This document shows, in pieces, positions 28,455-30,162 of a DNA stretch of 64,000 bases; position 1 is the first letter of the stretch; every line of letters begins with the position of its first letter. The position numbers and the translations under genes were made by a program. The notes under the pieces are model-generated. The model did not search any database. It saw only the letters and a list, made by a program, of their open reading frames with translations, and was not told where the DNA came from. This stretch comes from Escherichia coli. GTDB lineage: Bacteria; Pseudomonadota; Gammaproteobacteria; Enterobacterales; Enterobacteriaceae. Location of the stretch: NCBI RefSeq assembly GCF_011045215.1, contig NZ_CP049201.1; one strand, given 5' to 3'.

Positions 28455-28482
28455 AAAAAAACCCGCCCCGGCGGGTTTTTTT
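28455..28482 (+). terminator. rho-independent terminator of the alpha operon
   Basis: aaaaaaacccgccccggcgggttttttt. Confidence 0.85.
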
Positions 28483-28926: not shown

Positions 28927-29352
28927 ATGTATCGCATTGGTGAGCTGGCAAAAATGGCGGAAGTAACACCCGACACGATTCGTTATTACGAAAAGCAGCA
29001 GATGATGGAGCATGAAGTGCGTACCGAAGGTGGGTTTCGCCTGTATACCGAAAGCGATCTCCAGCGATTGAAATTTATCCGCCATGCCAGACAACTAGGT
29101 TTCAGTCTGGAGTCGATCCGCGAGTTGCTGTCGATCCGTATCGATCCTGAACACCATACCTGTCAGGAGTCAAAAGGCATTGTGCAGGAAAGATTGCAGG
29201 AAGTCGAAGCACGGATAGCCGAGTTGCAGAGTATGCAGCGTTCCTTGCAACGCCTTAACGATGCCTGTTGTGGGACCGCCCATAGCAGTGTTTATTGCTC
29301 GATTCTTGAAGCTCTTGAACAAGGGGCGAGTGGCGTTAAGAGTGGCTGTTGA
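28927..29352 (+). CDS. zntR: MerR-family Zn(II)-responsive transcriptional regulator ZntR
   Basis: MYRIGELAKMAEVTPDTIRYYEKQQMM HTH with C-terminal Cys/His metal ligands; track ORF starts upstream at 28879. Confidence 0.93.
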   Translation: MYRIGELAKMAEVTPDTIRYYEKQQMMEHEVRTEGGFRLYTESDLQRLKFIRHARQLGFSLESIRELLSIRIDPEHHTCQESKGIVQERLQEVEARIAELQSMQRSLQRLNDACCGTAHSSVYCSILEALEQGASGVKSGC

Positions 29353-29407
29353 TTTTTTGCACTGGCAGGATTACACTCGCGCCGTTAAATAACCAACTGG
29401 AGTTTTT

Positions 29408-29626
29408 ATGAGCCGATATCAGCATACTAAAGGGCAGATAAAGGATAATGCGATAGAAGCATTACTACATGATCCCTTATTCCGACAGCGCGTAGAGAAA
29501 AATAAGAAGGGGAAAGGCAGTTACATGCGAAAAGGAAAACATGGCAATCGGGGGAACTGGGAGGCCAGTGGCAAGAAAGTAAATCACTTTTTTACCACTG
29601 GTCTTCTGCTTTCAGGGGCTTGTTAA
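29408..29626 (+). CDS. arfA: alternative ribosome-rescue factor ArfA
   Basis: 72-aa [47 protein letters not shown]. Confidence 0.9.
29563..29603 (+). promoter_or_regulatory. stem-loop inside the arfA 3' coding region
   Basis: ggccagtgg ... ccactgg inverted repeat enclosing a T-run; at the location of the reported RNase III cleavage/termination hairpin that yields non-stop arfA mRNA. Confidence 0.6.
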
Positions 29627-30033
29627 GAGCGGTTATTCTGCTCTTTCAGCAAATCACGAATTTCTGTCAGTAATACTTCTTCTTTAGTTGGTGCTGGTGC
29701 GGCTGCTGGTTCTTCTTTTTTCCGATTCAGTTTGTTGATTAGCTTAATCGCCATAAAGATGGCAAAGGCCACAATCAGAAAATCAAAGACGTTTTGAATG
29801 AAGACACCGTAATGCATCACAACAGCAGGGATATCCCCCTGCGCGTCGCGTAGCGTGACAGCAAACTGTTTAAAGTCGATCCCGCCAATTAATAAGCCCA
29901 GAGGTGGCATGATGATATCGGCAACCAGTGAAGATACAATCTTCCCGAATGCCGCACCGATAATGACACCCACCGCTAAATCCACCACGTTCCCGCGCAT
30001 CGCAAATTCGCGAAATTCTTTAATAATGCTCAT
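29623..30033 (-). CDS. mscL: large-conductance mechanosensitive channel MscL
   Basis: 136-aa [49 protein letters not shown]. Confidence 0.97.
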
Positions 30034-30162
30034 GTTATTCTCCCTATGAAGCCGACAACCATAAGTCTAACAAATGTTAAGCCATTTTCCTGCCAGGAAT
30101 GAATTTAATTAATCCTTGATAATCAAAGGGAAATAATAAGGCGTCATTAGACGCCTTATTAA

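Follow-up and report, generated by a model that had tools for sequence, protein, structure and literature searches.

The 3' end of the arfA coding sequence in the stretch of Escherichia coli DNA under investigation harbors a hairpin that can be read, with a probability of about 88%, as an autoregulatory element acting on two strands: on the arfA strand it would be a switch in which RNase III generates a non-stop mRNA, and on the opposite strand it would belong to the 3' UTR of mscL, whose end would result from Rho termination followed by trimming. The stretch as a whole (64 kb, hereinafter the window) is a piece of the E. coli chromosome with the gene order rpoA-rplQ-yhdN-zntR-arfA / mscL-trkA. 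The arfA ORF, present both in the ORF list and in the NCBI pipeline annotation, spans positions 29408-29626 (+) and consists of 72 codons followed by TAA, while the mscL ORF lies at 29623-30033 (-) and encodes 136 amino acids (Pfam PF01741, 160.8 bits). A profile search with the arfA product retrieved the ArfA family (PF03889) with 89.5 bits against a cutoff of 25.5, the match covering residues 4-45 only; the same product matches the ArfA chains of the PDB, whose cryo-EM constructs stop at residue 55-60 or earlier.

The comparison with K-12 MG1655 revealed that the two arfA genes differ at nt 6 and nt 210 only, the hairpin (nt 146-206) being identical, and that the position, the structure and the neighbours of the K-12 arfA (yhdL) stem-loop are also the same (PMC3989581, PMC8012679). 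On the basis of this identity, the hairpin is the same element as the stem-loop at the 3' end of the K-12 arfA coding sequence, found here in another E. coli strain, and its functional features may be carried over from K-12. The locus is present in 5,425 of the 5,426 complete E. coli genomes, and the NCBI pipeline annotates the same arfA/mscL overlap in K-12 MG1655 as well as in a strain nearly identical to this one. The biology of the arfA hairpin has been in the literature since 2011 and that of the mscL side since 2023, and no new biology is added here. The original sources for the arfA stem-loop are reportedly Garza-Sanchez et al. 2011 (Mol Microbiol 80:1204) and Chadani et al. 2011 (Genes Genet Syst 86:151). 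The RNase III cuts, the truncated mRNA, its tmRNA tagging, the mscL 3' end, the antisense effect and the in vitro cleavage of the mscL UTR have all been demonstrated by others on the identical K-12 sequence.

On the arfA strand, the minimum free energy structure places the complete hairpin, an RNase III substrate and leaky terminator, at 29553-29613, in agreement with the published nt 146-206 (PMC10070815); it covers codons 49-69 of the 72, downstream of the Pfam domain (which ends at codon 45) and upstream of the stop codon. According to RNAfold, it is composed of a lower helix of 14 bp, including four G·U pairs (29558-29571 / 29595-29608), a 1x1 mismatch in which the unpaired C29572 faces A29594, an upper A/U-rich helix of 8 bp (29573-29580 / 29586-29593) closed by the loop AAAUC (29581-29585), and, outermost, four weaker pairs (29553-29556 / 29610-29613). 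In the lower helix, the 5' arm (29558-29571) contains most of the near-invariant segment GAGGCCAGTGGCAA (29561-29574), and the 3' arm (29595-29608) reads CCACTGGTCTTCTG, as recognized both in the folded structure and in the species alignment. The sequence-only reading had described a stem formed by ggccagtgg and ccactgg around a T-run, within codons about 52-65. The two segments (29563-29571 and 29595-29601) are indeed present and complementary, and the codon interval is the right one for this core, since E52 starts at 29561 and G65 occupies 29600-29602. However, a size of 7-9 bp does not hold for the whole stem, which is a 22-bp helix (14 + 8 bp) of the size handled by RNase III, and the T-run (29588-29593) is not in the loop: it makes up the 3' side of the upper helix, paired with AAGAAAG. 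With a single 1x1 mismatch between its two parts, the helix spans roughly two turns (some 20 bp or more).

The structure is among the most stable of the window. The region 29553-29613 (+) folded alone gives -29.9 kcal/mol and falls among the 11 best of the 31,970 61-nt windows scanned on both strands of the 64-kb window, i.e., in the top 0.03% (background mean -12.9, sd 4.5 kcal/mol, n = 31,970); for the segment 29540-29640, RNAfold yields -36.5 kcal/mol (z = -3.88), and none of 200 dinucleotide shuffles was equally stable. A repeat finder reported the element as two 19-nt arms, 84% complementary and 5 nt apart, while an inverted-repeat scan of the whole window based on 8-nt seeds was unable to seed it, the longest exact complementary run being 7 nt. 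The search of 29300-29750 against Rfam 15 with permissive thresholds retrieved no match for the arfA hairpin; the sub-threshold matches were generic microRNA-precursor hairpins with at most 18 bits against cutoffs of 55-96, which is at chance level.

It had also been suggested that RNase III cleavage or termination within this stem generates a non-stop mRNA and makes ArfA synthesis dependent on failed tmRNA rescue, and this is what has been published for K-12, whose hairpin sequence is identical. In K-12, RNase III cleaves the stem, the product of the truncated message is tagged by tmRNA and repressed, and the full-length ArfA is unstable (PMC3989581, PMC8012679, PMC10107115). The published cut on the 5' arm falls at 29572/29573 (+), i.e., between arfA nt 165 and 166 and directly after the Gly55 codon, a position that follows from the reported 24-nt fragment (nt 166-189) and from the start of yrdG at MG1655 3438484, corresponding to window position 29573; the published cut on the 3' arm (29596-29597, arfA nt 189/190) is staggered from it by 2-3 nt (PMC10070815). 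These positions are second-hand, and the studies disagree by 1 nt or so. A transcriptome-wide in vivo map of RNase III cleavage, in which arfA is a worked example, reported 2-nt dangling ends at the arfA cuts (PMC6212723); the interval bounded by the two cuts includes two G-C pairs (G31-C57 and G32-C56), and the in vivo rule formulated in the same study asks for one or more such pairs there. The downstream product is a 54-nt sRNA (29573-29626, +; MG1655 3438431-3438484 mapped to the window), annotated in RefSeq as the ncRNA yrdG (b4846), an "arfA-derived small regulatory RNA", which is processed further into pieces of some 24 and 30 nt and is antisense to the mscL 3' UTR (PMC10070815).

On these grounds, the following scheme can be proposed. 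Codons 49-69 of the arfA mRNA would fold into the hairpin of about 22 bp, and RNase III would cleave both of its arms, after nt 165 (29572/29573) and after nt 189 (29596/29597), while some RNA polymerases would also halt at the U-rich tail just past the stem. By either route the mRNA would end after about codon 55 without a stop codon, and ribosomes would stall at its 3' end. If tmRNA-SmpB is working, the nascent ArfA would be tagged for proteolysis and the decay of the arfA mRNA promoted; if trans-translation is saturated or absent, an untagged ArfA(1-55) would be released, recruit RF2 and rescue non-stop ribosomes. From the cut mRNA only codons 1-55 would be translated, the 17 later codons and the natural stop codon remaining effectively unexpressed. 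The arfA hairpin represents a clear case of expression gated by the failure of quality control, ArfA being made only when tmRNA is overwhelmed.

As for the opposite strand, the mscL 3' UTR (+1 to +64) occupies 29559-29622 (-), according to PMC10070815 citing SMRT-Cappable-seq, and is wholly antisense to arfA codons 51-72. The dominant mscL 3' end (+64) was located by Term-seq at MG1655 3438498, i.e., window position 29559 (-), in three growth conditions, and it is abundant, with 8,682 and 17,389 reads in two of the conditions (PMC7815308 and its supplement). The mapping of 3' ends on both strands, which had been proposed as a check, is thus provided by published data for mscL; on the arfA strand, instead, no dominant sense 3' end is listed by the same Term-seq of wild-type cells, as expected for an unstable non-stop RNA, so that these data lend the arfA side no support of their own. 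The overlap of the arfA and mscL transcripts follows from these mapped ends. The mscL-strand RNA forms a hairpin of its own at 29562-29604 (-) (centroid -20.6), so that the 3' end lies 3 nt past it; the structure is weakened in this allele, the G·U pairs of the plus strand becoming A·C mismatches, as happens with the invariant pair G29561·U29605 and, in this strain, with G29559·U29607. The mean of 77 species is -29.7 kcal/mol. Just 3' of it lies a C-rich, U-poor tract (CCCAGUUCCCCCGAUUGCCAUG, 29540-29561, -), a candidate Rho-loading (rut-like) site, and the C/G ratio is 1.5-1.6 over the next 100-150 nt. The 12 nt following the hairpin (CCCAGUUCCCCC) contain only two U, which is not the U tract of an intrinsic terminator, and the 77 species show on average 6.7 C and 2.4 U in these positions. 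A Rho score of 5.84 (p = 3e-28) was assigned to MG1655 3438536, corresponding to window position 29521 (-), 38 nt further downstream (PMC7815308), although such scores use 800-nt windows and do not locate the point of termination.

It is known that Rho-terminated transcripts may end just after stem-loops lacking a U tract, with rut sites located downstream (PMC6061677), and the mscL strand shows the features of this type, those of the sequence having been computed here and the 3' end and the Rho score taken from mapped published data. The mscL 3' end is therefore most likely the outcome of Rho termination and exonuclease trimming, with the hairpin acting as a protective structure rather than as an intrinsic terminator, since a U tract is missing, the downstream stretch is rich in C and a strong read-through is induced by bicyclomycin. 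The mRNA would be terminated by Rho further downstream and then trimmed in the 3'-to-5' direction back to the hairpin; alternatively, RNase III cleavage or a weak termination dependent on the hairpin could give rise to the end. The suggestion that the arfA structure might also end mscL transcripts stands in the sense that the hairpin marks their end, but not in the sense of an intrinsic terminator. Morra et al. 2023 (PMC10070815) reported that the arfA sRNA regulates mscL by an antisense mechanism and that the mscL 3' UTR is cleaved by RNase III in vitro; the UTR would thus also be a target of RNase III and of the 54-nt antisense yrdG, with a decrease of mscL mRNA. This antisense overlap ties translational stress to osmotic and excretion physiology. 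A 49-nt mscL-derived RNA is also mentioned in secondary citations.

The conservation analysis showed that the hairpin is under strong purifying selection as a nucleotide sequence. Across 75 species, the synonymous entropy was 0.147 bit for the codons of the hairpin arms versus 1.163 bit for the N-terminal codons, and the codons without any synonymous variation were 6/9 in the arms versus 0/34 in the N-terminal part; codons 52-54 showed zero synonymous variation and codon 55 a single variant. In 77 species of Enterobacteriaceae (a set that leaves out L006, L075 and L077, whose arfA was missed by the pattern match), the paired cells were 91.6%, versus 43-63% with slid partners, and RNAalifold returned a consensus helix at 29559-29607. 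The closing pair of the upper helix covaries, being C-G in 46 species, U-A in 28 and U-G in three; otherwise, covariation is weak within Enterobacteriaceae, because the arms barely vary. Position T29602, which forms a G·U pair in the window, is a C (G-C pair) in most of the other species and in about half of the E. coli genomes. Eight distant ArfA homologs (40-67% identity) all possess, within the ORF, a hairpin that begins at codons 46-55 and has a different sequence; six of these homologs (L084 and L086-L090) have no mscL neighbour, and in another one (L083) the hairpin is 109 nt from the mscL stop codon. The support for the structure comes mainly from its stability, its positional conservation and the distant homologs.

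The invariance of the arms goes far beyond the needs of base pairing. The fact that they do not vary at the nucleotide level, that compensatory changes are almost absent and that the encoded peptide is not translated suggests that the segment might play three roles at the same time: in the arfA mRNA it would be a leaky terminator and a substrate of RNase III, in the Rho-terminated mscL mRNA an exonuclease-blocking and RNase III-sensitive 3' stem-loop, and, thirdly, it would be the source of a perfectly matched antisense sRNA. That the hairpin has been selected as a two-strand module, and not merely as an arfA switch, is at present a tentative idea, more doubtful than probable; the invariance of the arms could also be explained by some sequence-specific factor binding the hairpin.

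The arfA and mscL ORFs converge on a shared TTAA (29623-29626) seen in the ORF list and in the annotation, where the arfA stop codon TAA takes 29624-29626 and that of mscL (the reverse complement of tta) takes 29623-29625; the 4-nt convergent overlap that had been noticed is therefore real, and it is the same as in K-12. In other Enterobacteriaceae, the stop-to-stop offset is 0, -4, -6, -26/-27, -33, -47 or -65 nt, and the hairpin stays equally far from the mscL stop codon while the arfA stop codon moves. Judging from this comparison, the 4-nt overlap is lineage-specific and incidental, and probably without a function of its own. A functional TTAA overlap, in the sense of translational or termination coupling, was considered and ruled out, given how much the offset differs between close relatives (0 to -65 nt). 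Since the stop codon and the 17 codons preceding it are effectively unexpressed, this stop would be free to drift into mscL.

Other explanations of the same data have been taken into account, two of which concern the mechanism by which the arfA and mscL transcripts end. It is rather unlikely, even if worth considering, that the arfA hairpin is mainly a Rho-independent terminator, with RNase III playing a secondary part and the non-stop mRNA arising chiefly from polymerases stopping at the U-rich tail. This tail follows the inverted repeat (UCUGCUUUCAGG, 29605-29616, +), is partly paired in the outer stem and probably marks the place of the leaky intrinsic termination described for rnc mutants, where a truncated arfA mRNA has its 3' end just downstream of the repeat (PMC3989581); it is U-rich both here (UCUGCUUUC) and across the 77 species (mean 6.1 U in 12 nt), and 4/8 of the distant homologs carry textbook terminators with a clear U tract (a hairpin, then UUUUU). 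In E. coli, however, the stem base GGCC/GGUC is followed by UUCUGCUUUC, in which the run of U is interrupted and partly paired in the lower or outer stem. Moreover, in vivo mapping of the RNase III cuts showed the 2-nt stagger that was expected, and the downstream 54-nt fragment exists as an annotated sRNA, which requires transcription to proceed through the hairpin. Read-through is also implied by a Rho-dependent component on the arfA strand (published score 2.49 at 29570); a related reading, according to which part of the premature termination on this strand is itself dependent on Rho, looks possible but improbable on balance. A consensus promoter and terminator scan called nothing at the hairpin on either strand, which is weak evidence, since the scan demands an uninterrupted stem, a 3-8-nt loop and at least three G-C pairs, and the internal C·A mismatch breaks the stem. 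The chances of a bidirectional intrinsic terminator serving both arfA and mscL are slim. The genes are convergent, the hairpin is stable on both strands, the mscL end falls 3 nt after the minus-strand hairpin, and the +64 UTR end itself came from a study on bidirectional terminators; nevertheless, the sequence past that hairpin has only the two U mentioned above (mean 2.4), no A tract upstream of the plus-strand stem is available to provide a U tract on the opposite strand, and an end 3 nt past the stem is closer than the usual 7-9-nt U-tract end. In addition, bicyclomycin increases read-through on the mscL strand 5.8-fold (p = 3e-28), and the whole set of features fits the published signature of Rho-terminated, exonuclease-trimmed transcripts.

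The remaining explanations regard the reason why the segment is conserved. That it primarily serves mscL, as a 3' stabiliser or terminator, with arfA merely overlapping it, might be suggested by the far wider distribution of mscL compared with arfA, by the abundance of the mscL 3' end in the Term-seq data and by the constant distance between the hairpin and the mscL stop codon in Enterobacteriaceae, against a mobile arfA stop. Such a possibility is very slim, in that the arfA genes without an adjacent mscL (L084, L086-L090) retain a hairpin within the ORF, with the codon position unchanged, the hairpin of L083 lies far from the mscL stop codon, and synonymous mutations disrupting the stem raise the level of arfA mRNA (PMC3989581). 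Finally, the idea that the inverted repeat is due to chance, or is a by-product of a coding constraint on the stretch EASGK...FFTTG, has a negligible probability. Conservation is seen in the amino acids EASGK and F(F)TTG, but it is at the nucleotide level and includes synonymous third positions, and the segment lies past both the Pfam domain and the RNase III cut. Natural E. coli arfA variants of 88-92 amino acids, including one with a frameshift in the T-run, also exist; like the moving stop codon, they mark the downstream part of the ORF as dispensable. The coding constraint is ruled out by the synonymous-site invariance together with these frameshifted variants, and chance is refuted by the z-score of the fold and by its rank in the top 0.03% of the windows. 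The reading retained is that of an RNase III non-stop switch on the arfA strand and a probable Rho-dependent, trimmed end on the mscL strand.

Hairpins inside rescue-factor genes are found in other systems as well. Schaub et al. 2012 is reportedly the source for the terminators of Bacillus subtilis brfA and of other proteobacterial arfA genes. In brfA and in these arfA genes, an ORF-internal Rho-independent terminator generates the non-stop mRNA; E. coli arfA shares with brfA a rescue-factor mRNA made non-stop by a hairpin of its own ORF, and hence repressed by trans-translation (PMC8012679), but it differs in relying mainly on the cleavage of a long helix by RNase III, with a degenerate U tract only. 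The mscL strand, in turn, resembles the transcripts of Dar & Sorek 2018 (PMC6061677) in its precise end past a stable, U-less stem-loop, in the C-rich downstream region and in the bicyclomycin-sensitive read-through; unlike them, its stem-loop is also the reverse complement of the regulatory hairpin of a convergent gene and is itself an RNase III substrate. The pair formed by the arfA sRNA and the mscL UTR is the one of PMC10070815, with the same 54-nt segment (29573-29626), the +1 to +64 UTR and the 4-nt overlap of MG1655. In that study, Morra et al. class E. coli as "proximal" and not as "overlap", whereas the annotated ORFs share four nucleotides including the stop codons; they are silent on how the mscL 3' end is formed, the combination of Rho and trimming being proposed here from other datasets. 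The arfA/mscL pair is also listed as a convergent excludon by ExcludonFinder (PMC12288877).

The window belongs to the E. coli chromosome: 5,425 of 5,426 complete E. coli genomes match an 801-nt query around the locus, with zntR, arfA and mscL as the genes under the match; one E. coli match to the same query is carried by a plasmid record. The genes rpoA-rplQ-yhdN-zntR-arfA run in this order on the plus strand, toward the convergent mscL-trkA of the minus strand. The arfA gene (29408-29626, plus strand; 72 codons, Pfam PF03889) and mscL (29623-30033, minus strand; 136 aa, PF01741) have the TTAA at 29623-29626 in common, with the arfA TAA at 29624-29626 (plus) and the mscL TAA at 29623-29625 (minus). 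The 4-nt convergent overlap of the two stop codons, claimed by the sequence-only reading, is therefore real, and it is identical in the NCBI annotation of a 99.9%-identical strain and of K-12 MG1655. Only nt 6 and nt 210 distinguish the arfA gene of the window from that of MG1655; over the hairpin, the window therefore has the very sequence on which the K-12 experiments were done.

The stem originally described (ggccagtgg, 29563-29571, with ccactgg, 29595-29601) is present, but it represents only the core of a much longer plus-strand hairpin. RNAfold applied to 29540-29640 yielded -36.5 kcal/mol (z = -3.88), a stability reached by 0 of 200 dinucleotide shuffles. A lower helix of 14 bp, including four G·U pairs (29558-29571 with 29595-29608), is separated by the mismatch C29572·A29594 from an upper helix of 8 bp (29573-29580 with 29586-29593), which is capped by the 5-nt loop AAAUC; four weak outer pairs (29553-29556 with 29610-29613) complete the structure, which spans 29553-29613 and coincides exactly with the "nt 146-206" given for arfA in the literature (PMC10070815). 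The fold pairs the T-run within the upper helix, so that it constitutes the 3' arm and not the loop around which the stem had been drawn; the proposed range of about codons 52-65 is right for the core. Folded by itself, the 61-mer 29553-29613 reaches -29.9 kcal/mol and is among the 11 most stable of the 31,970 61-nt windows on both strands of the 64 kb.

Reviews and subsequent work state that this stem-loop reduces arfA mRNA and protein, that its stem is cut by RNase III, and that synonymous stem-breaking mutations or the loss of rnc raise both mRNA and protein; in rnc mutants, a truncated arfA RNA ends just 3' of the repeat, which was interpreted as premature termination (PMC3989581, PMC8012679, PMC10107115). 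According to the same works, the truncated ArfA product is tagged by tmRNA and then degraded, full-length ArfA is rare and unstable owing to its hydrophobic tail, and active ArfA lacks the last 17-18 residues. In the in vivo transcriptome-wide map of RNase III cleavage, arfA is the worked example, with two cuts leaving 2-nt overhangs (PMC6212723). The fragments of Morra et al., nt 166-189 (24 nt) and nt 190 to the stop codon (30 nt) (PMC10070815), place the cuts at 29572|29573, directly after the Gly55 codon, and at 29596|29597; the two G-C pairs lying between them (G29570-C29596 and G29571-C29595) agree with the in vivo rule (PMC6212723). RefSeq annotates 29573-29626 as the 54-nt ncRNA yrdG, "arfA-derived small regulatory RNA". 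Thus, on a sequence identical to that of the window, hairpin formation, double cleavage and some premature termination have been published, together with a stop-less arfA mRNA ending at about nt 165, on which, in healthy cells, ribosomes stall and tmRNA tags the product; when trans-translation is overwhelmed, untagged ArfA(1-55) is made and then RF2 is recruited. The idea of a non-stop mRNA and of ArfA synthesis depending on failed tmRNA rescue is, hence, what has been reported for K-12.

In order to assess conservation, 80 Enterobacteriaceae arfA loci were retrieved by a one-genome-per-species scan. The alignment of 78 hairpin sequences contains no gaps and shows little or no variation in GAGGCCAGTGG-AA and in the core of TTACCACTGG-CTTC. 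When the E. coli structure is imposed on it, 91.6% of the cells are paired, versus 43-63% with partners slid by 1-3 columns; independently, RNAalifold found a consensus helix over 29559-29607. Covariation is seen at the pair that closes the upper helix (C-G 46, U-A 28, U-G 3), and 11 of the 26 pairs never vary. Among 75 species, synonymous entropy averages 0.147 bit over the conserved arm codons (52-56 and 61-66), six out of nine of which show no synonymous variant; the value for the 34 conserved codons of the N-terminal functional domain is 1.163 bit, and none of them is invariant. The Pfam ArfA domain ends at residue 45, the ArfA used in structural work is truncated at residue 55-60 or shorter, and natural E. 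coli alleles of 88-92 aa (proteins P0002, P0005, P0013, P0057 and P0070; changes at 29588-29626) carry shifted stops or frameshifts past the hairpin, P0057, with a 1-nt deletion in the T6 run, being found on 136 contigs. Taken together, these data fit a 3' segment of the ORF that is not translated; selection acts on the nucleotides and not on the protein, and the part of the ORF past the cut site can evidently vary freely.

The arms 29561-29574 and 29592-29606 are (nearly) invariant in nucleotide sequence, synonymous sites included, in 75-77 Enterobacteriaceae species, and compensatory double substitutions are almost absent. Such a constraint exceeds the needs of base pairing, even though the encoded peptide is untranslated, and a functional constraint acting on two strands would be its most attractive explanation. 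E. coli itself is polymorphic here: over 29553-29613, 2,581 genomes carry the exact sequence of the window and another 2,840 have 1-3 nt changed, and position 29602 is a T/C polymorphism. The C, as checked in two variant strains, gives a G-C pair in place of the plus-strand G·U and removes an A·C mismatch from the mscL-strand hairpin; it is present, with a G-C pair on both strands, in about half of the E. coli genomes and in most other species. In the window allele, the core of the minus-strand hairpin is weaker (-20.6 vs. -27.9 kcal/mol), since G·U pairs of the plus strand correspond to A·C mismatches on the other.

The 3' UTR of mscL (+1 to +64 past its stop codon) is antisense to the 3' coding part of arfA; its hairpin is cleaved by RNase III in vitro, and mscL mRNA is lowered by arfA or by the hairpin-derived sRNA alone (Morra et al. 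2023, PMC10070815). The released 54-nt arfA fragment pairs with this UTR and lowers mscL mRNA, as published on the identical sequence, and mscL-arfA is in the ExcludonFinder list as a convergent excludon. In the Term-seq tables of Adams et al. 2021 (PMC7815308), whose coordinate convention was checked against the MG1655 sequence before mapping, the dominant mscL-strand 3' end lies at MG1655 3438498, i.e., 29559 (minus strand) or mscL +64, in all three growth conditions (8,682 and 17,389 reads in the two with counts read). This is 3 nt beyond the minus-strand hairpin (29604 to 29562), bearing out the suggestion that the same structure also ends mscL transcripts.

Intrinsic termination is unlikely to be the mechanism. 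Beyond the minus-strand stem comes CCCAGUUCCCCC, which has 2 U in 12 nt (on average 2.4 U and 6.7 C in 77 species), the C/G ratio is 1.5-1.6 over the next 100-150 nt, and a Rho termination region was reported at MG1655 3438536, i.e., 29521 (minus strand; Rho score 5.84, p = 3e-28; PMC7815308). The mscL strand shares the signature described by Dar and Sorek for Rho-terminated transcripts, in which the precise steady-state end lies directly after a stable, U-less stem-loop acting as a block to PNPase and RNase II, and rut sites follow closely (PMC6061677). From these features we infer that Rho probably terminates the mscL transcript, which would then be trimmed back to the hairpin by exonucleases; RNase III and the arfA sRNA would act on the trimmed 3' UTR. 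The absence of a U tract and the Rho signal on the mscL strand likewise argue against a bidirectional intrinsic terminator, as which the hairpin could otherwise be read.

On the arfA strand, intrinsic termination is plausible as a contributing route; as the main role of the hairpin, it is opposed by the sRNA from further downstream and by the RNase III cleavage sites that were mapped, both of which show substantial read-through. A sense-strand Rho termination region inside arfA (29570, plus strand; MG1655 3438487; score 2.49, p = 1.7e-5; published bicyclomycin data) also suggests that the stop credited to the hairpin may be partly Rho-dependent. In all eight distant ArfA homologs examined (L083-L090, 40-67% protein identity), an ORF-internal hairpin starts at codons 46-55, with a sequence that is unrelated or compensated. 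An obvious U tract follows it in L085, L088, L089 and L090, as in classic terminators; L084, L086 and L087 have long helices without a U tract (RNase III type), and L083 is intermediate (6 U in the 12-nt tail). The hairpin might instead be an element of mscL that arfA merely overlaps; this reading is contradicted by the arfA genes that have hairpins and no mscL neighbor, a convergent mscL being present in only two of the eight homologs (L083 and L085). The hairpin thus belongs primarily to arfA. In every Enterobacteriaceae locus where both genes are readable, mscL converges on arfA, but the position of the arfA stop is not fixed: the ORF ends abut (0) or overlap by 4, 6, 26-27, 33, 47 or 65 nt. 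Given this variability, the 4-nt overlap characterizes Escherichia, many Citrobacter and a few other loci and is not a conserved device.

A chance or protein-coding artefact is refuted by the fold z-score, the top-11 fold rank, the synonymous-site constraint and the frameshifted natural alleles. All elements of the finding were already on record: the hairpin of arfA and its non-stop regulation were published in 2011 and the antisense overlap with mscL in 2023, RefSeq lists the sRNA, and the 3' end is contained in public Term-seq tables. The sequence-only reading thus correctly recognized a system that was known. What is added here is the exact anatomy, its statistical significance, the K-12 identity, the nucleotide-level purifying selection, and the conservation in distant homologs of the ORF-internal position, together with the non-conservation of the stop-codon overlap.

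Some minor observations concern the surroundings. One scanned arfA locus (L027, NZ_CACSJJ010000125.1, 383 nt), from an assembly labelled Arthrobacter sp., is Raoultella-like (87% identity) and most likely represents contamination. A terminator-like minus-strand hairpin (30134-30161; 12 pairs, then TTTCCCTTTG) immediately follows the stop codon of trkA, on the upstream side of mscL, and is probably the trkA terminator; a promoter-like match (30162-30133) overlaps it, suggesting that mscL has its own promoter. Inside the zntR ORF, a terminator-like match (29265-29288, plus strand; 10 pairs, then TGTTTATTGC) is probably due to chance, since a consensus scan of the region gave no more such matches than shuffled sequence. 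Lastly, the published rplQ Term-seq 3' end (MG1655 3439590, i.e., 28467) falls within the terminator hairpin of rplQ (28455-28482, plus strand), at its loop and not in its U tract, which may reflect processing or a mapping oddity of that entry.
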